A stretch of 64,000 bases of DNA from Hymenobacter sp. (GTDB taxonomy: Bacteria; Bacteroidota; Bacteroidia; Cytophagales; Hymenobacteraceae), in contig CBDFGP010000004.1 in the NCBI GenBank assembly GCA_965247135.1, positions 912,814 through 976,813 on the forward strand, in the 5' to 3' direction. The notes beneath the pieces were generated by a model. That model saw only the letters and a list, made by a program, of their open reading frames with translations. It was not told the DNA's origin and ran no database searches. Below are positions 7,980 through 48,848 of this stretch, piece after piece (position 1 is the stretch's first letter; each line of letters starts with the position of its first letter). The translations under genes were made by a program, and so were the position numbers.

Positions 7980-8055
7980 AAAGGAGTGAATTGGGGGTGA
8001 GGGGATTAATTTCCCGAAATATCGGCAGCATTTTCACAATTCCAATGCTGCCATT

Positions 8056-8231
8056 GTCCCGCAGGGCATTTCGGGTTCCAAGTAAGGCTCCGGGAATGTC
8101 CCGGAGGGCATCTCCGGTTCCGATACGGGGTCCGGGACATTCCCGCAGGGCATCTCGGGTTCCAAGATGCCCTCCGGGACATTCCCGGAGGGCATCTTGG
8201 TTCCGAGGAGGGGTCCGGGACAGTCCCGGAG
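8056..8231. repeat. Tandem array, about 4.2 copies of a 42-bp unit with a variable 9-nt core
   Basis: Units start at 8056, 8098, 8140, 8182 and 8223; consensus tcccg(c/g)agggcatct..ggttcc-N9-tccgggac. Confidence 0.9.
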
Positions 8232-29612: not shown

Positions 29613-31205
29613 CTAGGGCGCTACCACCACCCGCCGAAACCGGCGCTCGGTCCCGGCCGTGATAGCCAGCAGGTAGGTTCCGGGAGCCACCCCCGTCAGG
29701 GCCAGCGGCAGTTGCTGCGGCCCGGCTTCGTAGCGGCGCGGCGGCAGCGCGGGGCCAGCCGCCTGCCCGGTGAGGGTGAACAACTGCACCCCTACGGTCG
29801 CCGCAGCCGGCAGCGCCAGGGCTACAGTTAGGTAGCCGGTGGCTGGGTTGGGGAACAGTTGCAGGTCGGGGCCTGCCGGGTGGGCGGGCGGGCGGGCGGC
29901 CAGCACGGCTCCGTTCACCAACGCGGTCCATACGCTCGTGGCGGGCTGGAAGAAGTTCGGGTCCTGGTCCATGCGGGTCCACACTGGCCGCACCACGTTA
30001 TTGTAGGCCGCAATGTTGGTGTAGTCGCCCAGAAAACTCATGGCATCGGGAATAAAGAACGTTTGGCTAATCCGAAAATTTTGAAACGTGAGGCCGCCGT
30101 CGGTGCTTCTAGCCCCGTACACGTCGGTTGCCAAGCTGCCCACCGGGTAGTTGCGGCGGTCGTAGAACACAAACCACAGATAACCGGTAACCGGGTCCAC
30201 CGTCATCCAGGTCAGGAACTGCTGGCGACCGGCGGGGTCGTTGTTCACCCGGCGGGCAGCGCTCCAGGTCTGGCCACCGTCGGTGCTGCTGCTGAGCCAG
30301 ATGTCGGTATCAGCGGGGCCGTTGCGCTGGTCGCTCCAGTTCACGTACAGGGTGCCCCGGTGCGGCCCCCGGCTCAGGTCGCAGGCGGTCACGGGCAGGC
30401 CGTTGCTGCGGTCGAGGCCGGGCACATCGAACGCCCAGCCGCCGGGCAGCGCCGCCAGCGGGCGTTCGCCGCCCGGCAGCCACGTCAGGCCCCCATCCAG
30501 CGACCGATTGAACACGATGCCCTGCGGCCCGGCCCAACTCACATATATTTCGCCGTTTGGCCCCACAGCGGGCACGGCCCCTTCCACGGTGTTGCTCTCG
30601 TCGAAGGAATCGCCGCCCCGTTTGCTGATGCGGCGCGGCGCACTCCAGGTCGCGGCCCCGTCGAGGCTGCGGGTGAACAGAATGCGGCTGCTGTCCTGGG
30701 TGCTGGCGCTGCCGTAGCGGTCAAATTCGGTCCAGGTGCAGTACAGCGCGTTGGTGCGGCGGTCCAGGGCCAGCCAGCCTTTGTCTTGCTGCTTGGTGGG
30801 GTTCAGGCCAAACGAGGAACGCAGACCGAACGGGGCCGTGGCAGCGGCGGTCTTCTGCACCTGCATCCGGTCAATAAAGGGGAAGTTGTAACCAAAATTG
30901 CCGGGGTTGGTCAGGTGCAAATAGTAGAACGCGCCCGTGGTGTCGCACACAATGCTGGGGTCGCCCCACACGCCCTGCGGCGAAGACAACACTTGCCGGG
31001 TCCACGTCAGCCCCCCGTCCTGGCTCCAGTAGGCGTTATCGGTATTGGCCCCGGCCATCAGCTCCTGGGGGTTTTTGGGGTTGATGGCAATGGCGGTTTC
31101 GTTGGGGTTTTGCTGGTCGCTGATAAGCACATTGGGCGGCACGGCCTGCGCCACCGCTGCCAGCGGGGCCAGAAAAAATGGGAGCAAACGCAGAATTGAA
31201 CGCAT
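29613..31205 (-). CDS. BNR/Asp-box (sialidase-like beta-propeller) T9SS-secreted protein
   Basis: Repeated S-x-DGG-x-TW Asp boxes; FLGDYTNI; C-terminus FPNPA...GTYLL...RRVVV. Confidence 0.88.
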   Translation of the reverse strand: MRSILRLLPFFLAPLAAVAQAVPPNVLISDQQNPNETAIAINPKNPQELMAGANTDNAYWSQDGGLTWTRQVLSSPQGVWGDPSIVCDTTGAFYYLHLTNPGNFGYNFPFIDRMQVQKTAAATAPFGLRSSFGLNPTKQQDKGWLALDRRTNALYCTWTEFDRYGSASTQDSSRILFTRSLDGAATWSAPRRISKRGGDSFDESNTVEGAVPAVGPNGEIYVSWAGPQGIVFNRSLDGGLTWLPGGERPLAALPGGWAFDVPGLDRSNGLPVTACDLSRGPHRGTLYVNWSDQRNGPADTDIWLSSSTDGGQTWSAARRVNNDPAGRQQFLTWMTVDPVTGYLWFVFYDRRNYPVGSLATDVYGARSTDGGLTFQNFRISQTFFIPDAMSFLGDYTNIAAYNNVVRPVWTRMDQDPNFFQPATSVWTALVNGAVLAARPPAHPAGPDLQLFPNPATGYLTVALALPAAATVGVQLFTLTGQAAGPALPPRRYEAGPQQLPLALTGVAPGTYLLAITAGTERRFRRVVVAP

Positions 31206-31241
31206 GATGACAAATCTAATTAACTGAAAACCAAACAAGAT

Positions 31242-34131: not shown

Positions 34132-34935
34132 ATGTACGCCCTCATCACCGGGGCCTCGCGCGGCCTGGGCCGCGCCCTGGCCCTGCACCTGGCCCAACGC
34201 GGCTACGACCTGCTGCTCGTGGCCCGCTCCGGCGACCAACTCGCCGCCCTGGCCGAAGAAGTGGCCGCCACCCACGACCGGCAAGCCCACCTCCTGGCCC
34301 TGGACCTGACCGCTCCCGCTGCGGCTGCTACCGTGGCCGCCTGGGCCGCCCGGCACACGCCCACCCTGGCCGTGCTGGTGAACAACGCCGGATTTGGCCT
34401 CTGGGGGCGCTTTGCCGACTTGCCGCTGGCCGACCAGCAGGCCATGCTGCACCTCAATATGCTGCTGCCCGTGGCCCTCACCCACGCGCTGTTGCCGCTG
34501 CTACAGCCGCCGCCGGCCGCCGCCGGGCCGGGCGCGTCGCCCGCCTACATCCTCAACGTGGCCAGCACCGCCGCCTACCAGGCCGTGCCCACCCTCACGC
34601 TGTACGCGGCCAGCAAAGCGTTTCTGCTGAGTTTCAGCCGGGGCCTGCGCTACGAACTCAAGGACACGGCCGTGTCGGTGAGTTGCCTCTGCCCCGGCCC
34701 CATCAGCACCGGCTTCAACGACCGGGCGGGCATGGGGGCCGAATTGCAGCAAACCGCCGCCAAAGTGGCGATGACGGCCGAAGCCGTGGCCGAAGCCGCC
34801 CTGGCCGGAATGCTGCGCGGCGAGGCCGAAATCGTGCCGGGCGTGCTGAACAAGGTGGCCGCCGGGCTGACCAGCTTTGCCCCGAAGAGCCTGACGGAGC
34901 GCATTGCGGCGGGGATTTACGAGAAGTATCTGTGA
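34132..34935 (+). CDS. Short-chain dehydrogenase/reductase
   Basis: ITGASRGLG, LVNNAG, YAASK. Confidence 0.95.
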   Translation: MYALITGASRGLGRALALHLAQRGYDLLLVARSGDQLAALAEEVAATHDRQAHLLALDLTAPAAAATVAAWAARHTPTLAVLVNNAGFGLWGRFADLPLADQQAMLHLNMLLPVALTHALLPLLQPPPAAAGPGASPAYILNVASTAAYQAVPTLTLYAASKAFLLSFSRGLRYELKDTAVSVSCLCPGPISTGFNDRAGMGAELQQTAAKVAMTAEAVAEAALAGMLRGEAEIVPGVLNKVAAGLTSFAPKSLTERIAAGIYEKYL

Positions 34936-34974
34936 GGAAATGGGCAACTGCGGCCCGCGTCGCCGGTGGCAAAG

Positions 34975-35055
34975 AGGTAGGGTATTTTCGTTCGTCAAAA
35001 AAATAAACTACCTGCGAGGTAGGTTATTCGGGCCGAAGAAAAAAATAACCTACCT
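34975..35055. repeat. Two tandem palindromic units AGGTAGGTTATT-N-AATAACCTACCT (42-bp period), site 1
   Basis: Units 34975-35013 (imperfect) and 35017-35055. Confidence 0.9.
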
Positions 35056-35062
35056 GGCCGCG

Positions 35063-35695
35063 CTAGTGCAAAAACAGCCCCCCAAACGCTGCTTTCACCA
35101 GCCGCAGCACGTCGGCGGCCTGGGCCGGATTGAGGGCCAGGGCCGTGATGCCGCTGATGAAGCCGCCGATAATCCAGTTTTGCCAGTCCTTTTTGGTCAG
35201 CCCTTCGGCCTTCACGGCGGCGGTCTGGGTTAGCTCAATCAAGTTCTGGCGGGCGGCTTCGGGCAGGGCGGCCGTGGCGAAACTCTGCTGCAACTGCCGC
35301 AACTGACCCTGCACTTCGGCTAACTCGGTGCGGGTGAATTTGTCGTCGCTGGGCGTGGCAGTGGGAGCGAAGAGTTGTGCGGTTTTGGCGGCTTCGGCCC
35401 AGAGGTCGGGGGTTTCGGCCTCTAGTGCCAGAATTTCGGCCCACTTATCAAGGTGGGCCATAACTTGAGGCCAAGTAAGCGCCTGTGCAGACGTTTTTAC
35501 ACTTGTTACCCCAGGGTTCATCTCCAACGTGTAGTAAGGACCGTTGGCCTGTAAATAAAAAGCGTATTGTTCCCCGTCTAATTCGGTGTCCACTTGGTAC
35601 CACGCTTCCTGTTTCTCTTCATTGACACTGGACGCGGGAATACCATGCTTTTGCAGGACGTTTAGGATTTCGTTTCGCTGGATTTTCAGTAGCAT
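35063..35695 (-). CDS. Hypothetical protein (AT-rich N-half, GC-rich helical C-half)
   Basis: Clean 210-aa ORF; PDLW...KF...E...KKDWQNW pattern; no function recognised. Confidence 0.75.
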   Translation of the reverse strand: MLLKIQRNEILNVLQKHGIPASSVNEEKQEAWYQVDTELDGEQYAFYLQANGPYYTLEMNPGVTSVKTSAQALTWPQVMAHLDKWAEILALEAETPDLWAEAAKTAQLFAPTATPSDDKFTRTELAEVQGQLRQLQQSFATAALPEAARQNLIELTQTAAVKAEGLTKKDWQNWIIGGFISGITALALNPAQAADVLRLVKAAFGGLFLH

Positions 35696-35903
35696 AAGTT
35701 TTAGGTTTTAAACGGTGCCCAAAATCATTGCCTCCACCCGCGCCATACCCTCCGCTGCAAACGTCGCGGCTTGCTGACGCAATGATACGGCTTGCGTCGT
35801 TATCCTTTGGTCGGTTTCAACAAAAGCCTGTTGAATTTCTAGCGGTGGCAACGGCACCGCTAAGTTAGCAAAACAAACAATTCAGTTGAGACAAGCCAGC
35901 ACC

Positions 35904-38900
35904 CTACCCGAACAGTCCACCTGTGGCGGCGGGGCGGGCGGGACCTTCGCGCTCGGCGGCAGTGGGCACGGGCAGGGCATCGGCCAGTAGGAGCGGGCCG
36001 GTCACCACCCGGTCGAGCAAAGCGGCGGCGGCGGGCAGCACGGCCAGGGTGGCTTCGAGGGTCCAGAGGAGTTCGAGCAACTCCACGTCAAAGGCCCAAG
36101 CGGCGGGGCGCAGGGCATCGAGCGGCGACGACGATTTGCCGCTCCGTTTCAGCATTCGGTAGCCCAGCCACGAATCCACCACTTGCAGCCCCGATACGGC
36201 GTAGTTCCACACGGCCGGGGCTACGTCCGTGAAGCGACCGGCGGCTAGGCCTTCGCCTACTATTATGGTATGGGCCGCTTCATCGTAGCCAAATTTTTCG
36301 GGGTAAGCGGTGGTGCCCGTTCCGATGCGGGCCGCGCCGGGCGGCACGGTGGCAGCTGCTCCGGCTGGCCCAAAGCGGTGGCCCCAGGTGTGCAGCCGCA
36401 GCAGGGTGCGGCCCAGGGCGGCTACTTCTTCAAACAAGGCCGCGTCGGCGGTCAGGGGCAGGCGCGGGCCGGGCGTTTCCAACTCTTCCCAAAATAGCTC
36501 CACGTAATGCGGAGTCGCCAACAACGCGTAAGCGTACGCGAGTACGTCGTACGCGTCCATACGCGCACCCGCAGAGGGGTTGAGGGGTTGAGGGGTTGAG
36601 GGGTTGAGGGGTTGAGGGGTTGAGGGGTTGAGGGGTTGAGGGGTTGAGGGGTTGTACGTAGACGAAAGCAGCGCTAACAGTCCGGCTGGTAAGTTGGGCT
36701 GAGTGCCCGCCGCGTCGCGGTAGAGGGGAATGACATCAGCCCCACCGAAAGAACCGCGAAAATGGTGCAAATCGGGCGGAAGCTCAGACGCTACTGCTGC
36801 TGGGCCTTCTCCAACGATACCGGTCAGTAGACTGGTTAAATACACTTGCTGCGGTCCGTGCGCTTGTTGAAGGCTTGGCCGTAAATAATCTCCAACGCGG
36901 CTATCTACCAAGGCCCATTGCCGGTCAAAGCTGCGGTAGCTAATGGGCTGTATGCCGGGGACGGGTTCAGTTGCTGTAAGCCGAGCAATCGGAGTTAGCG
37001 TTTGTGCAGGGTTTATCAAATCAGTGTAAGCGCTGGTTATCCGACGGTCCCGGCTTTCCTTAAACAGTTCGCCCCGTTGCCCGGCTGGGCTGCCCACCAA
37101 TCTCGCCCAACGGGCCTGAAGCACTCCCGCATTTTCCCCAATCGGCCACGAGCGTTTGAATTGCATTCCGCTGGTTTGCCACGGAAACACGTCCGTCAGC
37201 AGCGGCCAGTCCACGTAGGCCGTGGTGGCAGCCGGAAGCAGGGGCGCGGTCCACGCGGTGGGGCAGTCCTGCCAAGTCAGGTCGGCAAAGGATTCGATGC
37301 CGCCCAACCGGGCCAGCTTGTCGGCTTCCGAGCCGGTGAGGCGGCAGTAGCGCACGGCGGCGGGCTGCCCGGCAACCTTGCTGCCGGTGCGAATGCCGAT
37401 GGCAATGCACACCGGGGTTTGAATGGCAAACACGTTGGCGGTTTTGCGGGCCCCCAGGTTGTCGCCTTCCAGGTTGATAATCCACAGCTCCTCGAAGGTT
37501 TCGCGCATTACTTGCCGCATCCCGGCAAAGCCCGGCCCGCGCAGGTACGACGAGGCCGTGATGAACGACACAATGCCGGTGTGGTGCGGCGGCTGCTCAA
37601 ACACCTTCCACAAGGCCCAGCGCCAGAAATACACGTAATCGTTGTAGAGATTTTTGGCGTGAATGCCGGCCCCCACCGCCGCCAGGGGTTCCAAAAAATC
37701 CTGGAGTAGGGGCCGATTGACGGCATCAGCCGCACCGGGGCTGCCGAAGCGTACCCAGCCGCCGTGGCGCTCGCGGGCAAGCACGGCTGCCCCGGCTTCG
37801 TGCTGCTCCCGGTAGTAGGGCGGGTTGCCGATGCACACCAGAATGGGCACGTTGGCCTTGACGTGCTGGGCGCGAATATGCTCCTGGCTCAAGGCCCGGT
37901 AGGCCAAAGGCAAGTGGTCGGGCGGGGTGGCATGGGGCGAATCGAGGGTGTCGGCCAGCAACACGTTGATGCCCCCGGCGGGCAGGGTGCCCCCGGCCGC
38001 TACCACTTGCTGCGTGAGGCGCAGGTGGGCCACGGCGTATGGCCCCACCAACAGCTCAAAAGCGTACATCTGCTGGGCGGCCGTGGTGGCAAACTGCGCC
38101 CGCACTCCTGCGCCGTAGGTGGCGGCTACGTGGTCGAGGCCGTAGCGCAGGGCCGCCAGCAGGTAGGTGCCGGTGCCGCAGGCCGGGTCGAGGGTGGCTA
38201 CCAGCGGGTCCACGAAGCCTTTGGCGGCCCCCAGGCGGGTCCGCAACAGATCATCAACGAGGCGTACCTGGGCCTGCACCACTTCCACGGGAGTGTAGTA
38301 CACGCCGCGCTGCTTGCGCATGGCCGGGTCATAGGCCCCCAGAAAATCCTCGTAGAAATACAGCCAGGGGTCGGCCGCCGTGCTGCCAAACAGCACCGGG
38401 TTCACTTCCGCCACGGTGCGGCGCAGCAAGTCGAGGGGTACGCGCACCTGGTCGTAGGCTTCGGGCTGGGCCAGTACCCGCAGCGTGTCGGAGAGCAAGC
38501 CGTGACCGGCTCGTAAGGCCGCCGCCGCCGTGGCCGGGTCGAGGGCCGTGGCCCCGCTCACCTGGGCCAGCAGCAGGGCGTAGGTCAGGGTTTGGGCGTA
38601 GGCATCGGCAAACTGTTCGGCCGTGGCATCGGGAAAGAAATACACCTGCCAATCGGCCAGTAAGCTGCCCAGGGGCGAGGCGGGGTCGGCGAGAAGGCCC
38701 TCGGCCACGTCGTCGCGCAGTAGGCGGCAAAGGGGGGCCAGCACCTCGGCCAACGCCTTGGGCTGGCTGGGCACCACCGGTTGCCAACTCAGAAAATCGC
38801 GCAACAGCCGGTCAAGGGCTACGGCGCTGGCCTCGGTTGCGGCAGCCGAACCGTCGGCGGTAACATCGCTGGCCAAGCGGCACAGCGGCCCCTGGCGTTC

Positions 38901-39266
38901 GCCGTCGCGGTACAAAGCCCACTCCTGCCCGTCGGTGTAGAGCACGTTGGGCAGGCTTTTAAATTTCTCCCACTGCTTTTTGTCGTGCGGGTCGCGGAAT
39001 CGGGTGGGGTTCGCCCCCTTGCCGGGCGGTTTTAGCTCCACGTAGCCCGTGAGCAGGCCGCTGACCAATACGCCCAGGTCAGGGCGGCCTACGCCCGTCA
39101 TGGCTACCTCGCGGCGCACGTCCACTGCCGGGTAGTGCCGCAGCAAGTCTTCCACGGGGCCGGTAAGCTGGGCTTCGGGCTGCGCCCCCGGCAAGCTCCC
39201 CGGTCCGTAGGCAGCAGTGAGGCGGCCGGCAAAAGCTTGCAAAGGGGCGAGTAGAGGCGAAAGCAC
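35904..39266 (-). CDS. Single-chain restriction-modification enzyme (type IIG-like): PD-(D/E)XK nuclease + N6-adenine MTase + type ISP-like C-terminal specificity domain
   Basis: RPDLG...GYVELK; GVYYTP, DPACGTGTY, GNPPY; YRSFDRQW and YAYALL...Y C-terminal motifs; no helicase motifs seen. Confidence 0.9.
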   Translation of the reverse strand: MLSPLLAPLQAFAGRLTAAYGPGSLPGAQPEAQLTGPVEDLLRHYPAVDVRREVAMTGVGRPDLGVLVSGLLTGYVELKPPGKGANPTRFRDPHDKKQWEKFKSLPNVLYTDGQEWALYRDGERQGPLCRLASDVTADGSAAATEASAVALDRLLRDFLSWQPVVPSQPKALAEVLAPLCRLLRDDVAEGLLADPASPLGSLLADWQVYFFPDATAEQFADAYAQTLTYALLLAQVSGATALDPATAAAALRAGHGLLSDTLRVLAQPEAYDQVRVPLDLLRRTVAEVNPVLFGSTAADPWLYFYEDFLGAYDPAMRKQRGVYYTPVEVVQAQVRLVDDLLRTRLGAAKGFVDPLVATLDPACGTGTYLLAALRYGLDHVAATYGAGVRAQFATTAAQQMYAFELLVGPYAVAHLRLTQQVVAAGGTLPAGGINVLLADTLDSPHATPPDHLPLAYRALSQEHIRAQHVKANVPILVCIGNPPYYREQHEAGAAVLARERHGGWVRFGSPGAADAVNRPLLQDFLEPLAAVGAGIHAKNLYNDYVYFWRWALWKVFEQPPHHTGIVSFITASSYLRGPGFAGMRQVMRETFEELWIINLEGDNLGARKTANVFAIQTPVCIAIGIRTGSKVAGQPAAVRYCRLTGSEADKLARLGGIESFADLTWQDCPTAWTAPLLPAATTAYVDWPLLTDVFPWQTSGMQFKRSWPIGENAGVLQARWARLVGSPAGQRGELFKESRDRRITSAYTDLINPAQTLTPIARLTATEPVPGIQPISYRSFDRQWALVDSRVGDYLRPSLQQAHGPQQVYLTSLLTGIVGEGPAAVASELPPDLHHFRGSFGGADVIPLYRDAAGTQPNLPAGLLALLSSTYNPSTPQPLNPSTPQPLNPSTPQPLNPSAGARMDAYDVLAYAYALLATPHYVELFWEELETPGPRLPLTADAALFEEVAALGRTLLRLHTWGHRFGPAGAAATVPPGAARIGTGTTAYPEKFGYDEAAHTIIVGEGLAAGRFTDVAPAVWNYAVSGLQVVDSWLGYRMLKRSGKSSSPLDALRPAAWAFDVELLELLWTLEATLAVLPAAAALLDRVVTGPLLLADALPVPTAAEREGPARPAATGGLFG
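36574..36653. repeat. Simple sequence repeat (GAGGGGTT)10 inside the RM gene
   Basis: Ten perfect 8-bp units; translates as (NPSTPQPL)3-NPS. Confidence 0.97.
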
Positions 39267-39340
39267 TGTCGTAAATTAAGAAGTAATGGCGGCAAATTAC
39301 ATCCGTTGTCATACTGAGGCAATGGGTAGGCAAACCGATT

Positions 39341-39430
39341 GGTAGGTTATTTTTGCTCACCAAAAAAATAACCTACCTGGCAGGTAGGTTATTCGGGCCC
39401 AAAAAAATAATACCCTACCTCATGCCCCGC
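39341..39430. repeat. Two tandem palindromic units plus a copy of the first three codons of the HTH gene, site 2
   Basis: Units about 39341-39378 and 39382-39420, followed by catgccccgc as at 40390-40399. Confidence 0.9.
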
Positions 39431-39432
39431 AC

Positions 39433-39464
39433 AAAAAAAACCCGCTCACTGTGAGCGGGTTTTT
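39433..39464 (-). terminator. Intrinsic terminator for the DUF6169-like operon
   Basis: aaaaaaaacccgctcac-t-gtgagcgggttttt. Confidence 0.8.
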
Positions 39465-39491
39465 CCGGGGCCGTGGCGGGGCACTACTAAT

Positions 39492-39953
39492 CTATAATTT
39501 GCTCAAATCGTCAAGTGGAATCTGGTCAATCGCGGCCCGGTCGGGGTGGGTGGCCCGGTAAATCAGCGAAACGAATTGCTCGTTAGCCGGGTCGGAATCT
39601 CTTTTGATGAGGGACAATCCAGTCTTTTTAACATAGTCCCGGTACCACCGGTCGAATTTTTTATGGCGGGCGGCTTCCTGTTGGTCGGCCGACGAGCAAA
39701 CCCAGGCGATAATTGTTTGGGGGCTTTTGGCTAACACTTGTTTCAGCACGGCCAGCACGGTTAGTTCAATGCGGGGGTCAGTTCCTTTGCGGGGGCTGGG
39801 GTCGGCATCGGGGCTTTTTAATTCTAAATCAAACACCAACCCGTGCCGGGCTATCATCGGGTTGGGGCAATTGGCGTATTCGCGAAAGGCGATAAAATAG
39901 GTGAGGCCTTCCTCGGTATCAAACTCATAAATCGTTGCCTCCGGCAGTGCCAT
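39492..39953 (-). CDS. DUF6169-like protein (probable start MALPEATIYEF)
   Basis: YEFDTEEGLTYFIAF...D.RI..TV...WVCSSADQQEAARHKKFDRWY pattern recalled from that family. Confidence 0.7.
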   Translation of the reverse strand: MALPEATIYEFDTEEGLTYFIAFREYANCPNPMIARHGLVFDLELKSPDADPSPRKGTDPRIELTVLAVLKQVLAKSPQTIIAWVCSSADQQEAARHKKFDRWYRDYVKKTGLSLIKRDSDPANEQFVSLIYRATHPDRAAIDQIPLDDLSKL

Positions 39954-40101
39954 CAAGCGGCAAGGATAGGGGCGTAATAAAGGTAATATCATAAACGGAA
40001 TGGTTTTTAGGGTCGCGGACATACGCTGTCAGGCGCTTTTTATCGGCCGCGATTTGGTTGAAAAATTCTTTTAAAGTAAGTTTTTTTACTTGCGTTGCCA
40101 C
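39925..40101 (-). CDS. Unannotated 58-aa ORF overlapping the DUF6169-like gene start
   Basis: Manual translation from GTG: VATQVKKLTLKEFFNQIAADKKRLTAYVRDPKNHSVYDITF...; TACCTTTG element about 40 bp upstream. Confidence 0.55.
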   Translation of the reverse strand: MATQVKKLTLKEFFNQIAADKKRLTAYVRDPKNHSVYDITFITPLSLPLDGTAGGNDL

Positions 40102-40350
40102 GGCGGTAGTTTATAAAAGGGTAAACGATTGAGCACTGCAAAGGTAAGCACTCGTGTGGCCCTAACGGGGGGCTGGCGCAGGGAGTTCAGAGGGGCGGAC
40201 ATATTCCGGGGGTAGCGAACCAAATATACCCGCAGGAAGCAAGAAAAAAAACGTTTCAATCAAAAACCTTAAAAATTCATTGCCGACGGCCAGGACCCGC
40301 GCCCGGTCGTCGGCAACAGCTTTTGGGGGTTTCGGGGCAAACTACCCGCC

Positions 40351-41554: not shown

Positions 41555-44500
41555 CTACTCCTTCGTCAGCCGCTGCCGGAACACCAGCCCGGCATTGGCT
41601 TCTTGGCCGCTGAGTTGGAGCAGGTACTGGCCGGTGGCGAGATTGGCCAGATTCACTGGGGTATTGCTGCCACCGGGCAGGGCCTGGGTGCGTACGGTGC
41701 GGCCCAGGGCATCCAGCACTTGCAAGCGGTAGGAGCCGGTGGGCAGGGCGCTCAGGTCGAGGCTGACGCTAGTGGTGGCAGGGTTCGGATATACGCCCAG
41801 GGCGGGCACCAGGGTACCCGTGAAGCGCACCACCTGCACGGGGCTGAGGGATTCGCGGCCGTCGAGGTCCACTTGGCGCAGGCGGTAGTACGCCAAGGCC
41901 CCGCGTTGGGCGGCGGCGCGGTCCACGAAGCGGTAGTCGGTGGGGCGGCTGGTGTTGCCCTGGGCATCGAGGCGGGCGAAGGCGGCAAAGGTTTTGCCGT
42001 CGGCGCTGCGCTCCAGGCTCCAGTAGGCGCTGTTGCGTTCGCTGGCCGTGCGCCAAGTCAGGGCCGCGTCGGCATTTTGCACGGCTTTGGCCGCGAAGGC
42101 GAGTAGCTCGACCGGCAGCGGGTAGGGGCCGATGACGAAGGTGACGGGCTGGGTGTTGGTGCCGCCGAACAGGTCCACGGTGGTCACGTTCACGGTGTAG
42201 GTGCCGGGCACGAGTTGGGCGGGGTTGCTGACGTAGATGCGGCCCGTGGCGGGGTCAAGGGCCGTGCCGGGGGGCAGCGCGTTGCCGGGGTTGCCGGACG
42301 GAGCCGGGGCCGACCCTGGCCCGCTCGTGGGCGTGAGGGCGGCGCTGACCAGGCCGTTGCCGTTGGGGCCGCTGTCCACGGCCCCGGCGGCGGTGTACTT
42401 GCCGCCGTTGTTGTCAAACACGTTGGCCAGGGTCTGGTTGGTGGCGTACGCGCCGGGGTTGGTGGGCAGGGCGGCGTAGAGGGAGGGGTTGTCCTGGCCC
42501 ACCGGGATGGTGTAGCGGGCTACGTTGCTGGACAAGGCGTTGGCGGGGGTGCCGTTGCCGTTGTCGGTGGCCTGGAAGTAGAAAAACACGTTGCCGATGT
42601 AGCCGGGGGTGGGGTCGAAGTACAGCGTGGCCGCTTGGCTGGGAGTCAGGGCCTGGCCCACCGCCACGAGCGTGAGGGTGGCCCCGTTCAGGTAGTACAA
42701 CAAGCCTTGCGCAGCGGTCGGCAACTGCGTCACGGTGAAGCTGGCGATGCTGCCGTCAATGTCGGTGCCTTGCAACGGCGCAATGGGCAGCGGGCCGGCG
42801 GTTTCGCCGCGCGGGGCTTGCAGGTAGTTCACCACGTCCTGGGCCAGGGGCGGCAGGTTGGCGGGAGCGGTGGTGGTGAAGCTGCTCACGTTGTTGCCGC
42901 TGGGGGCGGTGTCGCCGGTGGCGCTCACCTGCCCCTTCACGGTGAAGGTGGTCGCGCCGGTCGGCACCGTGAAAATCACCGAGTTGGTGACGGAGTTGGC
43001 CCCGCCCGGTTGCAGGCTCGTGATGGTGGGAAAGGTGATGACGTTGCCGGTCTGGGTGCCGCCGCCGGTGATGGTCACGTTGGTGGCCCCAGCGGGGATG
43101 GTCAGGGTTTGGACCACGTTCGCGGCCACGCTGGGGCCGTTGTTCTGGGTCACGACCCCGTAGGTGACGGTGCTGCCCGCCGAGGCCGTGGCGGGGCCGC
43201 TCACGGCGGTGGCCACATCCACTGTGTCGGACAGGGGCACGGTGGCGGTGGTGCGGTTGTTGCCGCCGTTGGTGTCGGTTTCGTTCAGGGTGGCGGTGGC
43301 CGTCAGGACCAGCGGCGAGCGGCCCGGCGCGGCAAACGCCAGGGCTGTGTTCACGGTGCTGCCCGTGCCCAGGTTGCCAATCGGGATGACGAGCCGCCCG
43401 CTGCCGGGGTCGTAGGTGGCGGTGCCGCCCGGCACCGCGAAGTTGTAGAAGCCGGTGATGGGGTCCAGGGTAGCGGGGCTGCCGCCCACCGCAAAGCCAG
43501 CGGCGTTCAAGCCCGCTGGCAGGGCCACTTCCTGCACCACGCCGGTGGCCGGAGCGGCGGCGCTGTTGGCGGTTTGCACCGTGAATGCCACCGTGCTGCC
43601 CGCCGCCGCCGTGCCCGGCAGGCCCACGAAGGCCGTGCTCACGTCGGGGTTGCTGGCCGAGGCCGGGCTGATGCTAATGCTCAGGGCTGTGGCGTTGTTG
43701 TTTAGGTTGGAGTCGTCCACCCCCGACACGCTCACGTTGGCCGTGGGCGTGATGACGTTGCCGCCGGGCGTGATGAACGAGATGGAGCCGCGTTGCGTGG
43801 CGGCACTGCCGGCCGGCAGGTTGCTCAGGGCCGGAAACGTGACCCGCCCGCTCAGGGCATTGTAGGCCCCGGCCAGCACCGCCCCGTCGTAGCCGCGCAC
43901 CTCCACCCCGGCCAGGCCGCTGGGCAGTTGCACGGTAGTGGTCTGGGAAGGCGAAGGGCTGGGGCCGTTGTTGGTCGTGAGCACTTGAATCGTGACCGGG
44001 GCACCCACCGTGCTGCTGGCCGGGCCGGTCAGCACCACGGCCACGTCGGCCTGGGCCGACACCGGCGTTTGCAGACTGGCCACGTTGTTGGCCGGCACGG
44101 GGTCGGTGGCATCGCTGCGCACCACGGCCACGTTGGACAGGGTGCCGTTGCCCACCGGGGCCACGTAGGTCAGGGTGTTGGTCACGGAGCTGCCCGGGAA
44201 CAGGATGCCGGGCACCGGAATTCGCAGCACCCCGCTGCTGGCATCGTAGGTGGCGGCGGTGGGGCCGGTGCCGTAGGTGGCCACCGTGCCGCTCACGGTG
44301 GTGGGCGCGGCCCCGTTCACCAGCACCGCGTTGGGGCCGGCCAGGGGCAGGCCGGCCGCGATGTTGACGAACTGCACGGCGTTCAGGGCCTGACCTGGCC
44401 CCCGGTTGGTACTCACCACGGTGTAGGTCAGGGCCTGCCCGGCGGTGGCCTGCACCGGCCCCACAATGTTGGTACTCACGTCGGCATTGGCCAGGTTGTC

Positions 44501-47500
44501 CACCGTCACGCGGGTGCTGGCCACGTTGTCGGCCAGCACGGGGTCGGCGGTGCTGGCCCGCACGCTGGCCGTGGTGGTGAGAAAGCCCGTAGCCGGAGCC
44601 GGGGCCACCACGGTGTGCGTCACGGAGGTACTGGAAGTTTGGGTTGCCAGCACCGGAAAGGTCAGCACCCCGGTCGTGACATCGTACACGGCCGTGCCGC
44701 CGGGTAGCGCAAAGCTGATGATGGCGCTGCTGCCACTGCCGCTGGCCGTGCCACTCTGCCCGTCCACCTGAAAGCCGGTGGTGGTGAGGTTGGGGCTGAG
44801 GGCCACTTGCAAAGCCACGTTCTGGGCCGCGCTGGGGCCGTTGTTGCCCTGAACCACGGTGTAGGTCACGGGCGCACCGGCCGCCACGCTGCCGCCCGGC
44901 GCGTTGGCACTGATGGTGGTGTAAACGTTGGCCGACACCGTGGGGGCCGGGCCGACGGTGGTGGTCACGCTGGTGGTGTTGTTGGGCGGGTTGGTTTCGC
45001 CCCCGGCGGCGGTGTTGGGCTGCACCAGGGCCGTCAGAGTGAGTGGCCCGCTGACCGGCGCGGCAAACGAGATGGTGTTGGTGATGACCTCGGTGCGGGG
45101 CAGGCTGCCGGGAATCGGGAACGTGAACGTGCTAACCCCGCCGCTGAACGAGTAGGTGCCGCCGTTGCTCAAAAACACGTTGGTCAGGGCCACGCCGGTG
45201 TTCAGGCTCACGGTTTGGGTGGCGTTGGGGGCCGGGCTGGGGCCGGCGTTCTGGGTGGTCAGAAAGTAGGTGGCGAGTTGGCCCGCGCCCACACTGGCCG
45301 GTCCGTTCAGGGTCGTGAACAAGTCAAACGCGGGCAGGGTGGTGATGGTGATTTGCTGGCTGTCGTTGGCCGTGACCCCGGCCTGGCTGGTGGTGGTGCT
45401 GATGGCCGCCACCGCCGTCACCGACCCCGTGGTGGCGGGTTGCACAAAGGTGATGACCGAGCTGAACACCTGCCCCCGCACAATGCTGGTGATGCCGCTG
45501 TACGTGACCCGCCCCGTGGCGGGGTCGTACACGCCGCCCCCGGTCACGGACGACACGTTGAGGCCCGTGGGAAGTTGCACAAACGCCACCACCCCGTTGG
45601 CGGTGCTGGCCCCGACGTTGGTAAAGCTCACGTTGAACTGCCCCGGCTGACCCGACGACACCGGCGTGGTCCCCACCGCCACCGTGGCCACCACGTCGGC
45701 CGTAAAGGTGATGTTGGCCGAAAACTCCGAGGTGTTGGTGCCGATGGTGGCCGTGGTCGTGACCCCGACTTGCAAAATCGTGGCCTGCTGGGCCGCCGTG
45801 AGGCTGCTGAATGGGATGGTGAAGTGAAAACGGCTGGCCGCCGGGTCCTGCCCCTGCGGCACCCCACTAATGGCCCCCGGCCCGTAGCTGCCCGTGCCGC
45901 CGTCGGTGTCGTCGGCGGTGCCTTCGGTGCGGGTCACGAGGTAGGTGCGGCCCTCGCCAAAACGAGTGGGGTCCACTTGCGGAATGAAAATCTCGACCAC
46001 CGCGCCGGGCCGGCAAAAGCCGTCGAGCAACAGGTTGCCGCCCACCACGTCAATGCCGGTCAGCACCGGGTAGTCCACGCCCCGGTTGGGCACGGTGTTG
46101 GGCGCGGCGGCGGGGTCGTTGCCGTCGTTGAGGGTCACGCCATCGCCGGAGCCGTACTCAATGTTGCCGTTGCCGGGGCCTTGCACGTAGGCCGAAGCGC
46201 GGGTCACGTGGTCAATGGAAATGGCCCCGTTGGCGTACTCGGAATTCTGGCTGATGACGACGTTCTGTTGCCCGTAGCCCACCACAATGGCCGAAGCCTG
46301 GGTGTCGGTGATGATGTTTTTGGTGATGAGGTCGGTTTGCCCCACAAGGCTGCGGCGGTTGCCGTCGCGTTGCAGGTAGCAGATGGCCGAGCCTTCGAGC
46401 TGCGACTGCGCGTAGCCCGCCCCGCCCTGCCCGGCCGCAATCATGGTGTTGTTGCGAACAATGGACGAAGCAGTTTGACCAATCTCAAACTGCACCGCGC
46501 TGGAGTTGGAGCGCGTGAAGAGGTTGCCCTCGACCAGCACCGGCCCGGCCCCGCCCGCATCGCCCAAGCTGATGGCATCGCCCCCGGCACTGGTGTAGCC
46601 GTTCTGGGTAAACTCGTTGCCCGTCAAGGTGATGATGGTGGCATTGCCCGTCCCGTTGTTGATGTTCACCCCCGAGTTGCCCGTGAAGCCCACCAGGTTG
46701 CCCGAAAACAGGCCCGCGCCGCCCGTGATGTTCACCCCGTAGTTGGCCGACACCGTGTTGTCGTTCGGGTAAGCATAGTTGGTGGCGCTGCCGCCGATGA
46801 TGTTTTCCTCAATCACAAAGCCGGTGGCACTGGTAGCCACGGTGGCATTGGTGCCGCCCCGCAGGGCCACGTAGCGCACCGCGTCGCCGGCCCCGGTTAT
46901 TGTGAGCAGCATGGCATTGGCGTTGGTTGTCAGCAAGCTGACTTCCGGCCGGGCCACTGGGGTCAGGGGCAGGCCGTCCACGCCCACCACGTCGCTGGTG
47001 CCGAGTGTGCCGGGGTTGGTATCGCCGATGTTCACGGTTTGGGTGCGCCCGTCGATGGCCGTGTTAGGCCCGGTGCAGGTCAGCAGACTCAGGACCGCAA
47101 ACACGGCCCGCTGGTCAGTGCCCGCTGTGCCGGTAAGCTGGTTGGGCAGGCCCGCCCGCAGGCCGGGGTGGGCCACCCCGTCGCCCACCATAAAAATGGT
47201 GGTTTCTACGCCCGCCGCCGGGTTGGGGCCACCGGGGTTGGTGGCCGGGTCCTGGTCGAGGCCGGTATTGGCCAGCGCGTTGGCGTTGGCCAGAAACTGC
47301 CGCAACGAGCCTTGCCCCGCGTCGTTCACATTCACGACAGTGCTGAAGTTGAAGCCGAAGTCCACGCCCGTGGCATCGGTGGCCCCCAGCGTCACGGGCG
47401 CAATGTTCTGGGCACCGGCGGGCAAGTTGGTGGCCGGAACCACCGTGAAGCTGGCCGTGGTGAAAGTGGTGTAAGCCGAACTGGCGGGCTGAAACGTGCC

Positions 47501-48388
47501 CAGCGAGGTGCCGTTGATGGCCACCGTCAGGGCCTGAACATTGTTGGTGCGTTGCGCCGCCCGGAAGCGGATGGTATAGGTGCCGGAGCTGAGGCTGAAG
47601 CCCTGGCTGAAGCTGCTAAAACTGCCGTTGTAGGACTGCACAAACGCCACCTGGGTGCCGTCGGGGGCCACGGGGTTGCCGCCGCCCACATTGAAGGCGC
47701 TACCGTTGGCGGCAATGCCGGTTCCGTTGGGAAAGCTCCAGGTGGCCCCGCCGGGGCTGTATTGGTAGCTGCCGTTGCCGGTGCCCAGGTTCGGGGTTTC
47801 AAAGCTCGGATTGACGGGCAACCCGGCCACCACGGTGTTGGTGGCATCCAGAATTTCCACCAAATCCACAAACGCCGTGTTGTCACCGGCCACGGCGGCC
47901 CCCGTGAAGCTCAGCGTCTGGCCGGTGGCTGGCGTGGCATCGGCGGCCGTGGGGTTTTCGCCGCCCACCCGTTCGGGGTCGGCCGCGCCGTTGGCGGTGC
48001 GGTAGGTTTGCACCGGCAGCAAGCCCGCCACGCCGCCTGCCCGCGCCGGTTGCACCGTGCCGCTGGGCACCCGCACCACGTAGCTGCCCGCCGCCAGCCC
48101 GCCAAAGCTGTAGCTGCCGTTGGCAGCCGTGGTGGCAGCGGCCACAAACGTGCCCGACGCATTGTAAAGCTCGACGCGGGTGCCCGCGCTGGCAATGCTG
48201 GCCAAGCCCGAAGCCGCCGCCGACGCGCTGGCCGTGGCGAGGTTCCGCCCGCTGCCGCCGCCGTAGTTCACGTCCTCGAACACGGTGCCGCCAATGGTGG
48301 CCTGGGCCGTGGCCGTGGCCGGTCGCAAAGCCAGCCCCACCGCAAACAAACTTAAGAATATGTTAGAAAAAATTTGTTGAGTTTTCAT
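41555..48388 (-). CDS. Giant T9SS-secreted adhesin-like protein (SdrD-B-like start, beta-helix region, tandem DUF11-like Ig repeats, type A CTD)
   Basis: Signal peptide after ATG 48388; GTVFEDVNY; repeated DV...GP...G..V.Y.V...N.GP..A...DP...NN repeats; YPLPVELL...YYRLRQVDLDG...YPNP tail. Confidence 0.9.
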   Translation of the reverse strand: MKTQQIFSNIFLSLFAVGLALRPATATAQATIGGTVFEDVNYGGGSGRNLATASASAAASGLASIASAGTRVELYNASGTFVAAATTAANGSYSFGGLAAGSYVVRVPSGTVQPARAGGVAGLLPVQTYRTANGAADPERVGGENPTAADATPATGQTLSFTGAAVAGDNTAFVDLVEILDATNTVVAGLPVNPSFETPNLGTGNGSYQYSPGGATWSFPNGTGIAANGSAFNVGGGNPVAPDGTQVAFVQSYNGSFSSFSQGFSLSSGTYTIRFRAAQRTNNVQALTVAINGTSLGTFQPASSAYTTFTTASFTVVPATNLPAGAQNIAPVTLGATDATGVDFGFNFSTVVNVNDAGQGSLRQFLANANALANTGLDQDPATNPGGPNPAAGVETTIFMVGDGVAHPGLRAGLPNQLTGTAGTDQRAVFAVLSLLTCTGPNTAIDGRTQTVNIGDTNPGTLGTSDVVGVDGLPLTPVARPEVSLLTTNANAMLLTITGAGDAVRYVALRGGTNATVATSATGFVIEENIIGGSATNYAYPNDNTVSANYGVNITGGAGLFSGNLVGFTGNSGVNINNGTGNATIITLTGNEFTQNGYTSAGGDAISLGDAGGAGPVLVEGNLFTRSNSSAVQFEIGQTASSIVRNNTMIAAGQGGAGYAQSQLEGSAICYLQRDGNRRSLVGQTDLITKNIITDTQASAIVVGYGQQNVVISQNSEYANGAISIDHVTRASAYVQGPGNGNIEYGSGDGVTLNDGNDPAAAPNTVPNRGVDYPVLTGIDVVGGNLLLDGFCRPGAVVEIFIPQVDPTRFGEGRTYLVTRTEGTADDTDGGTGSYGPGAISGVPQGQDPAASRFHFTIPFSSLTAAQQATILQVGVTTTATIGTNTSEFSANITFTADVVATVAVGTTPVSSGQPGQFNVSFTNVGASTANGVVAFVQLPTGLNVSSVTGGGVYDPATGRVTYSGITSIVRGQVFSSVITFVQPATTGSVTAVAAISTTTSQAGVTANDSQQITITTLPAFDLFTTLNGPASVGAGQLATYFLTTQNAGPSPAPNATQTVSLNTGVALTNVFLSNGGTYSFSGGVSTFTFPIPGSLPRTEVITNTISFAAPVSGPLTLTALVQPNTAAGGETNPPNNTTSVTTTVGPAPTVSANVYTTISANAPGGSVAAGAPVTYTVVQGNNGPSAAQNVALQVALSPNLTTTGFQVDGQSGTASGSGSSAIISFALPGGTAVYDVTTGVLTFPVLATQTSSTSVTHTVVAPAPATGFLTTTASVRASTADPVLADNVASTRVTVDNLANADVSTNIVGPVQATAGQALTYTVVSTNRGPGQALNAVQFVNIAAGLPLAGPNAVLVNGAAPTTVSGTVATYGTGPTAATYDASSGVLRIPVPGILFPGSSVTNTLTYVAPVGNGTLSNVAVVRSDATDPVPANNVASLQTPVSAQADVAVVLTGPASSTVGAPVTIQVLTTNNGPSPSPSQTTTVQLPSGLAGVEVRGYDGAVLAGAYNALSGRVTFPALSNLPAGSAATQRGSISFITPGGNVITPTANVSVSGVDDSNLNNNATALSISISPASASNPDVSTAFVGLPGTAAAGSTVAFTVQTANSAAAPATGVVQEVALPAGLNAAGFAVGGSPATLDPITGFYNFAVPGGTATYDPGSGRLVIPIGNLGTGSTVNTALAFAAPGRSPLVLTATATLNETDTNGGNNRTTATVPLSDTVDVATAVSGPATASAGSTVTYGVVTQNNGPSVAANVVQTLTIPAGATNVTITGGGTQTGNVITFPTITSLQPGGANSVTNSVIFTVPTGATTFTVKGQVSATGDTAPSGNNVSSFTTTAPANLPPLAQDVVNYLQAPRGETAGPLPIAPLQGTDIDGSIASFTVTQLPTAAQGLLYYLNGATLTLVAVGQALTPSQAATLYFDPTPGYIGNVFFYFQATDNGNGTPANALSSNVARYTIPVGQDNPSLYAALPTNPGAYATNQTLANVFDNNGGKYTAAGAVDSGPNGNGLVSAALTPTSGPGSAPAPSGNPGNALPPGTALDPATGRIYVSNPAQLVPGTYTVNVTTVDLFGGTNTQPVTFVIGPYPLPVELLAFAAKAVQNADAALTWRTASERNSAYWSLERSADGKTFAAFARLDAQGNTSRPTDYRFVDRAAAQRGALAYYRLRQVDLDGRESLSPVQVVRFTGTLVPALGVYPNPATTSVSLDLSALPTGSYRLQVLDALGRTVRTQALPGGSNTPVNLANLATGQYLLQLSGQEANAGLVFRQRLTKE

Positions 48389-48848
48389 AGTAAAAAAAGG
48401 AAATTTTTTAGTAGTTGTGCAAAAACAACTGCACACTAGTTGCCTGCTAACAGGTTGATTGAAAACAAAAAGGCCATTAGCTGCCAGCCATTTGCGAATG
48501 AATAACTACTTAAATTACTAAACTATTATAAATGAGCAAATACATCTGTCCGGTCGTCCGGCCGTCCACGAAGGACTAAGCCTGCTATACGCCAACGCCG
48601 GACAAAACGATGGGGAACCCGCACGCCGTGCCCACCCATTGAGTGGTGACAAAGCGGACTTCTGTACCCCAAACGACGATTTTGGCACTTAAATTAACTT
48701 TCAGTACCCCAAAAAATCACATGAAGATGTGAGGGCTGCGTACGACCCGGTGGCCGCTGCCGGATGGCAATACGAGCCGCAACTGGCCCTTGTATTGCCC
48801 CTAAATTGCCTGGCCCAGCGGGGCGGGAGGGGCAGCTGGGTCCGCCTT

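Follow-up and report, generated by a model that had tools for sequence, protein, structure and literature searches.

The 64,000-nucleotide (nt) stretch of Hymenobacter sp. DNA analysed here, hereafter the window, carries on its minus strand a gene for a single-chain restriction-modification (RM) enzyme of 1120 amino acids (aa), and within the coding sequence of this gene lies a perfect octanucleotide array, a simple sequence repeat (SSR) of ten units. PADLOC assigns the RM protein to REase_MTase_IIG (PDLC03631, E=0), and its Pfam domains are N6_Mtase and Type_ISP_C. The latter encloses the array, in agreement with a first-pass annotation of this DNA that had placed the repeat in the "C-terminal specificity region". 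The coordinates of the features are collected in Table 1.

An alignment of the window protein with 16 homologues (53-82% identity) shows that the nuclease residues D63, E77 and K79 (RPD63...E77-L-K79) and the methyltransferase (MTase) motifs DPACGTG and NPPY are invariant across all 17 sequences, the latter two as expected of a gamma-class N6-adenine MTase. The AlphaFold (AF2) model of the protein has a mean predicted local distance difference test score (pLDDT) of 67.6; its best fold match is DrdV (7LVV), over the full length and with an E value of 1e-22, with LlaBIII and LlaGI behind, and the nearest solved structures by sequence are LlaBIII, DrdV and LlaGI. No separate S or R subunit was found among the neighbours of the RM gene. 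By sequence and modelled fold, the protein belongs with the single-chain Type IIG/IIL enzymes of the DrdV kind, and its catalytic motifs are intact. Homologues are named "type ISP restriction/modification enzyme" in the databases. A Type ISP identity was rejected for the window protein because the RecA-like ATPase/translocase domain is absent (no helicase or ATPase family occurs among its Pfam, NCBIfam and PADLOC matches), and its length is 1120 aa as against about 1570; for the architecture found here, the label is a misnomer. A protein search returned more than 3800 homologues, and an exact-protein look-up gave no record of the window protein itself. Full-length homologues of about 45% identity, likewise annotated "type ISP restriction/modification enzyme", reside on plasmids of Thermus aquaticus, Thermus sp. 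and Oceanithermus (H1-H4), and the plasmid collection contained distant RM homologues only, at no more than 45% identity. These plasmid-borne proteins may be members of the Type IIG family known from Thermus.

On the plus strand the array reads (GAGGGGTT)10, for which Tandem Repeats Finder (TRF) gives a period of 8, 10.1 copies, 100% matches and a score of 162. It is the sole perfect array with at least four copies of a 5-12-nt unit that a regular-expression scan detected in the 64 kb, and a 16-nt two-unit pattern allowing up to two mismatches matched nine times, always within the array (0.04 matches expected from 100 shuffles). The ten-copy array is real and not a product of chance. On the coding strand the unit AACCCCTC begins at nt 2614 of the gene in codon phase 0, and the array is read as the peptide (NPSTPQPL)3NPS, aa 872-898. 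Rfam gave no match at the locus.

The gene was rebuilt with 0-15 units, and a full-length product is obtained only at 1, 4, 7, 10 and 13. All remaining counts end at one of two TGA codons, 36430-36432 or 36452-36454, which lie 39-47 codons past the array. An alternative C-terminus in another frame was considered and rejected, as positions 35904-36570 contain no other open reading frame (ORF) of at least 60 aa on the minus strand; hence, an OFF count means truncation rather than a new C-terminus. The part that is lost contains many alignment columns that are invariant past residue 900, from Y913 to E1105, and is modelled as helices and strands at residues 905-1100 with pLDDT values mostly between 66 and 94. 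Since this C-terminal part is predicted to be folded and is conserved, the OFF product most likely loses function. The first-pass annotation had read the frame in the same way (open at 1, 4, 7, 10 and so on) and had put the loss at the last ~220 aa, which fits the 221 residues following the array. Its remark that the nuclease and MTase cores are left translated holds for the frame logic, but residual activity is not implied by it, the break lying within the recognition domain.

Within the recognition domain, the array constitutes a 28-aa insertion in a loop. All 16 aligned homologues have a loop of seven residues at this place (e.g., TYGPAVTAPDVLAY), and the window protein reads TY-(array)-SAGARMDAYDVLAY. 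Residues 874-902 are modelled as coil with pLDDT below 50, flanked by helices at 863-871 and 905-916 and followed by the folded residues 905-1100. The loop is predicted to be disordered, and an in-frame array should be tolerated, because the insertion sits in a low-pLDDT loop between helices. The array is absent from the approximately 100 homologues examined, namely the 16 aligned proteins and 84 homologous loci from assemblies and metagenomes. None of these 84 loci has an SSR at the array site, and the only SSR-like tracts within their genes are three 9-nt homopolymer runs elsewhere in the gene. In the search for closer orthologues the metagenome scan reached 72% identity at best and the protein search 80%, with the array in none of them, and a search with the C-terminal 223 aa for fragments of contigs broken at arrays yielded distant short proteins only.

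Four public sequencing runs (X1-X4) contain words of the RM gene, all of them as Logan k=31 contigs, and neither an RNA run nor long reads containing the locus were found among the public runs. In X1 both array junctions are exact (word share 1.00), the contigs 34153-36603 and 36625-40336 each stop 30 nt into the array, and two repeat-only unitigs have depths of 37.6 and 48. X2, which stems from the same study, contains window-identical pieces at 34456-36161 (depth 128), 36173-36515 (depth 17.8) and 36625-39388, the right flank and the array having a depth of 64.5 and a repeat-only unitig one of 43. Positions 36516-36600, i.e., the junction of the array with its left flank, are missing from X2, and non-homologous tails of 29-30 nt are attached at 36161, 36173 and 36515. 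The 3' third of the RM gene is polymorphic or rearranged between the samples X1 and X2, which is not a measure of repeat length; likewise, the arithmetic of unitig depths is too ambiguous to call a repeat length.

X3 derives from another organism, whose RM orthologue shares about 91% nt identity with the window gene (60 differences over 35901-36559 and 182 over 36831-39233). Its contigs depart from the window sequence at 36559 and 36678, on either side of the array, and end on the plus strand in ...CGCAGGCGCG TTGTGAGG TTGTGAGG TTGT... and ...TGAGGTTG TGAGGTTG TTTAGCAAGG..., respectively. The loop of the X3 orthologue is accordingly built from a different 8-nt array with the coding unit CAACCTCA and the peptide NLTTSQPH, of which at least 29 nt are visible at each contig end. 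Judged from these sequences, the site has stayed an octamer array through speciation, since the orthologue carries (CAACCTCA)n in this very loop. That one site has two homogeneous arrays built from different units implies that units have continued to be gained and lost, presumably by slippage, since the lineages split. The sister array in X3 argues for a dynamic and long-lived array and is the strongest indirect support for its hypermutability.

The array is a plausible on/off switch of the kind known from pathogens, and on balance, if with modest confidence, we favour the interpretation that it is a hypermutable SSR, which would serve as a frameshift ON/OFF switch in a functional DrdV-like Type IIG/IIL RM gene. 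The array lies in an ORF, is perfect and has a unit that is not a multiple of three; its 10 units exceed the published threshold of at least 3 for octanucleotide tracts (PMC7383803). In the proposed mechanism, slipped-strand mispairing at replication would add or remove 8-nt units. With 10 units, or any count that is 1 mod 3, the cell would make the 1120-aa enzyme with a disordered Pro/Ser/Thr loop in its recognition domain. With any other count, translation would stop 39-47 codons past the array, and the conserved, folded last 221 residues would be gone. The truncated product would most likely be unable to bind its site, such that methylation and restriction are lost together (OFF), until another slip brings the frame back. 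The population would then be a mixture of ON and OFF cells, hedging phage defence against the cost of restriction and openness to foreign DNA. Within this scheme, we infer the slippage rate, the loss of activity in the OFF state, the reversibility and the selective benefit. The first-pass annotation had proposed an ON/OFF switch as well; what sustains this proposal is the frameshift anatomy (a perfect array, a unit that is not a multiple of three, an intact RM gene and early stops) together with the X3 array, while the presence of an array is by itself no mark of contingency. If switching takes place, SSR phase variation of a combined restriction-methylation enzyme would extend from host-adapted pathogens to free-living high-GC Bacteroidota, with a long 8-nt unit that the ON gene translates into a loop. 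It would also touch on the trade-off that environmental bacteria make between defence against phages and the uptake of genes, and would provide a simple natural ON/OFF pair for mapping the methylation motif of the enzyme.

The same octamer recurs in many other genomes. Scanning one genome per species for (GAGGGGTT)3 gave at least 120 loci (L001-L120), the listed ones mostly in metagenome-assembled genomes of Bacteroidota, Lentisphaerae, Verrucomicrobiota, Planctomycetota and Gemmatimonadota, several of them in the same genome; among the matches listed, the modal length is about 3.9 units and the longest array has about 16. These loci were rejected as further RM genes, as no surrounding ORF is related and the repeat peptide alone matches. 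The G-rich strand of the array contains TGA in all frames, and a gene usually starts just past the array with the C-rich strand as its sense strand. In 51 of the 84 testable arrays, i.e., those far enough from contig ends, an ATG-initiated ORF of at least 100 aa begins no more than 300 nt downstream when the C-rich strand is read, as compared to 31 in the opposite orientation, and an ORF of at least 150 aa starts between -3 and +90 nt past the array in 43 of the 125 arrays listed. The downstream ORFs tested (10/10) are ordinary full-length genes, coding for, e.g., adenylate kinase, cysteinyl-tRNA synthetase, RodA/FtsW, fumarase or ABC transporters. Start codons typically lie 0-90 nt downstream of (AACCCCTC)n arrays in matching orientation, and four octamer units make up one G-quadruplex motif on the opposite strand. 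From its sequence context, the octamer looks like a recurrent G-free 5' leader array. The array in the RM gene is special in its intragenic position, its ten perfect copies and its sister array in X3. A further array, an exact (GAGGGGTT)n, lies at another place in the genome of the X3 organism, on contigs matching window positions 36576-36607 and 36624-36653; on the C-rich strand it stops 1 nt short of an ATG (with ...GGGGTCCATC adjoining the array as flank) and again resembles a leader.

Several observations weigh against the switch. The occurrence of the octamer alone is no signature of a contingency locus, and since the array is common before ordinary housekeeping genes, it would seem to arise or to persist on grounds that have nothing to do with switching. 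Those full-length homologues that come closest, at 78-80% identity, are devoid of the array, which by this comparison is young. The evidence on length from X1 and X2 is limited to k=31 contigs, which are interrupted at the array; X1 contains no contig bridging a shortened array, and its unitig depths agree with a single prevailing length of about 10 units if coverage is that of the right flank (6), not if it is that of the left flank (11.8). The truncated protein may, moreover, keep some activity: in DrdV the recognition domain comprises residues 636-1029 and the base contacts extend from N673 to K807 (bioRxiv 10.1101/2021.01.06.425610), and the insertion point corresponds to about residue 843 of DrdV, downstream of these contacts. 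By this equivalence, a truncated product would retain the base-contact region and lose the last subdomain. Finally, it is risky for an unmethylated cell to regain an active restriction enzyme.

These points feed the main rival explanation, in which the (AACCCCTC)n array is a tolerated passenger that expanded in a disordered loop; an in-frame count would be harmless, and slips would produce ordinary loss-of-function mutants on the way to pseudogenisation, with reversibility unselected. This is possible, though in our judgement not probable. It draws on the at least 120 loci of diverse genomes with the same array, mostly of about 4 copies and mostly in the 5' leaders of ordinary genes, on the lack of the array in all other homologues, and on the k=31 contigs, in which length heterogeneity was not demonstrated. 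It also accords with a family whose members are often split by ordinary mutations: three homologues are broken into 2-3 ORFs (L205:2220-5328, L206:2410-5136 and L207:1570-4898), no SSR was found at their split points, and to judge from their sequences they are ordinary pseudogenes of a kind common in this RM family. Yet, the window gene is still intact and in frame, in itself a 1-in-3 chance, and ten perfect copies far exceed the modal four seen elsewhere. Above all, an orthologue diverged by about 9% keeps a homogeneous octamer array with a changed unit in the same loop, which would be unexpected if off-frame slips had killed the gene without reversion.

The other alternatives fare less well. 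In-frame tuning of length, where steps of three units (8 aa) would lengthen or shorten a linker in the recognition domain and so change its geometry, its specificity or the distance of cleavage, is very unlikely. Repeat number does tune some Type I HsdS subunits (EcoR124I/II), and the array encodes a Pro-rich linker with an 8-aa period between two subdomains; but a long linker is dispensable in all other homologues, whose loop has seven residues, and single-unit slips, all of which shift the frame, are mechanistically commoner than three-unit slips. It is highly improbable, too, that the G-free array serves the in-frame ATG 13 nt past its end (M903) as an unstructured leader for translation, so that a 218-aa C-terminal fragment would be made, which could complement OFF products. 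The ATG (36558-36560) does follow the array, the X3 orthologue has GTG at that codon, the mRNA strand of the array is unstructured by prediction, and the same array elsewhere precedes genuine start codons by 0-90 nt. However, an in-frame start codon is expected by chance in about one quarter of cases in a variable loop of nine codons, and the homologues are all single continuous polypeptides. We attach as little weight to a DNA-structure element, in which G-quadruplexes of the G-rich template strand would impede transcription or replication and modulate the 3' part of the gene regardless of frame. The ten GGGG runs at 4-nt spacing are the only quadruplex motif of four G-runs in the window, and the predicted energy of the array is -65 with and -12 kcal/mol without quadruplexes, calculated with RNA parameters; this element leaves unexplained why X3 has kept the octamer period with the G-poorer unit TGAGGTTG, which contains GG runs only. 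An assembly artefact, i.e., a wrong copy number or a chimeric join across the array, hardly merits credence, since despite the breakage of short-k assemblies at the array and the uneven depths and missing left-flank junction of X2, both junctions are exact in X1, the flanks are contiguous in-frame parts of one conserved protein, and the X1 repeat unitigs fit about ten units at right-flank coverage.

A broader proposition goes beyond the ON/OFF switch itself. Selection might maintain the loop as a contingency site of free-living Hymenobacter; its octamer array would have outlasted speciation while the units were replaced in concert (AACCCCTC vs CAACCTCA), and soil and air Bacteroidota would by this means turn a one-chain restriction enzyme ON and OFF at random. 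The array would in addition come from a class of G-free (AACCCCUC)n arrays, so far undescribed and found across phyla, before the start codons of ordinary genes in Bacteroidota, the Planctomycetes-Verrucomicrobia-Chlamydiae (PVC) group and Gemmatimonadota, which may be unstructured translation leaders or length-variable tuners of expression. Taken as a whole, we consider this proposition unlikely. The leader arrays may nonetheless be of wider interest than the switch, as the octamer recurs before the start codons of many genomes in which Shine-Dalgarno sequences are little used.

The window has a GC content of 62.8%, and two genes neighbouring the RM gene code for proteins with sorting domains of the type IX secretion system (T9SS), a DUF11-repeat and a BNR-repeat protein, which are useful taxonomic markers for Bacteroidota. 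The HMG-CoA reductase encoded in the window shares 85% identity with that of H. ruber and 78-83% with those of many other Hymenobacter species. By these sequences the organism is Hymenobacter-like, and the "environmental Bacteroidota" of the first-pass annotation is upheld by the two T9SS neighbours and by the closest named HMG-CoA reductases, which come from Hymenobacter species and share 80-85% identity. The RM gene has an island-like look, as GC falls to 0.51-0.55 on either side of it. The interval 39330-39470, between the start of the RM gene and the upstream DUF6169 gene, contains a terminator-like hairpin (CCCGCTCACAGTGAGCGGGTTTTTTTT) and, in two copies with A/T runs, an inverted-repeat element (GGTAGGTTATT...AATAACCTACC; TRF 39341-39420, period 42). 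Downstream of the RM gene, the window has a 210-aa ORF (35063-35695). It is unrelated to a conserved gene of about 270 aa (starting ...IETKRVLIWAKTYPELSDKHRETVCT...; no Pfam match), which lies 3' of the RM gene in the three closest full-length homologues (L121:9343-10161, L122:4584-5405 and L124:3946-4755) and was found nowhere in the window by tblastn. At 8055-8228, a 42-nt tandem array (4.2 copies, 77% identity) consists of palindromic copies (GTCCCGSAGGGCATCT...GGGACA) and has the look of a cluster of repetitive extragenic palindromes.

Table 1. Features of the RM locus, neighbouring genes of the window and examples of the octamer array at other loci
Feature	Position	Strand	Basis or remark
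Single-chain Type IIG/IIL RM gene, 1120 aa (nuclease, helical connector, N6-adenine MTase, recognition domain)	35904..39266	-	ORF, PADLOC, Pfam, fold match
Type_ISP_C recognition domain, aa 692-1059, array in its middle	36090..37193	-	Pfam PF18135, E 2.6e-68
PD...ExK nuclease motif (D63, E77, K79)	39030..39080	-	Invariant in all 17 aligned sequences
MTase motif I DPACGTG, aa 360-366	38169..38189	-	ORF translation and alignment
MTase motif IV NPPY, aa 481-484	37815..37826	-	ORF translation and alignment
Octanucleotide array, perfect	36574..36654	-	Coding strand (AACCCCTC)10; plus strand (GAGGGGTT)10 = template strand
OFF-frame TGA stops	36430..36454	-	36430-36432 for n=9, 12 etc.; 36452-36454 for n=8, 11 etc.
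C-terminal 221 aa, second half of recognition domain, lost unless units = 1 mod 3	35904..36573	-	Frame rebuild
2293-aa DUF11-repeat protein, T9SS C-terminal sorting domain	41555-48436	-	
BNR-repeat protein, T9SS C-terminal sorting domain	29613-31238	-	
Example arrays (AACCCCTC)n	L005:903-954, L118:3441-3473, L021:345-383, L089:1-34		

Among the closest known systems is Cj0031 of Campylobacter jejuni NCTC11168. This Type IIG enzyme (CjeNIII-type) has a poly-G9 tract at nt 2573 of 3732, which is absent from other alleles, and its ON/OFF changes affect methylation as well as phage restriction (PMC4889913). Like Cj0031, the window enzyme combines nuclease, N6-adenine MTase and recognition domain in a single polypeptide, and in both cases an intragenic repeat at ~70-78% of the gene, which is missing from most homologous alleles, splits the ORF upon a frameshift. 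By analogy, Cj0031 offers a direct precedent for a phase-variable Type IIG enzyme. In contrast to the mononucleotide tract of a host-adapted low-GC pathogen, where switching was demonstrated by experiment, the window array has ten 8-nt units, forms a 28-aa loop, resides in a high-GC free-living host and is known from sequence. The 3' position of the array, which the first-pass annotation had pointed out, is not unusual, given the position of the Cj0031 tract; the annotation had also framed phase variation as a trait of host-adapted pathogens. Phase-variable RM genes are not so confined: surveys of Type III and Type I systems in REBASE list many SSR-bearing genes, including those of environmental species (PMC5909438, PMC7383803), and regard RM genes with octanucleotide tracts of at least 3 units as potentially phase-variable (PMC7383803). 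A corresponding survey of Type IIG genes for repeats was not found in the literature searched.

With the SSR-bearing Type III mod and Type I hsdS, hsdM and hsdR genes (phasevarions), the window gene would share, by analogy, the slipped-strand control of an N6-adenine MTase. Phasevarion systems consist of multiple subunits, of which usually the MTase or the specificity subunit alone varies; unlike these, the window enzyme unites nuclease, MTase and recognition domain in one chain, so that all activities would switch together. DrdV (Type IIL; PDB 7LVV/7LO5; bioRxiv 10.1101/2021.01.06.425610) has the same order of nuclease, helical connector, MTase and C-terminal recognition domain, and the window helix after the insertion aligns to DrdV residues 843-905, but DrdV contains no repeat and the identity is 17-18% only. 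With Type ISP enzymes, the window protein has in common an MTase and a "Type ISP C-terminal specificity" domain; LlaBIII aligns to it only over its residues 848-1177 and the C-terminus, i.e., the MTase and recognition parts. Phase-variable Type IIG enzymes and repeat-bearing RM genes of environmental bacteria are thus already known, and what is unusual here is an 8-nt unit that is translated as a loop, a high-GC free-living host, and a conserved array site with turnover of its unit.

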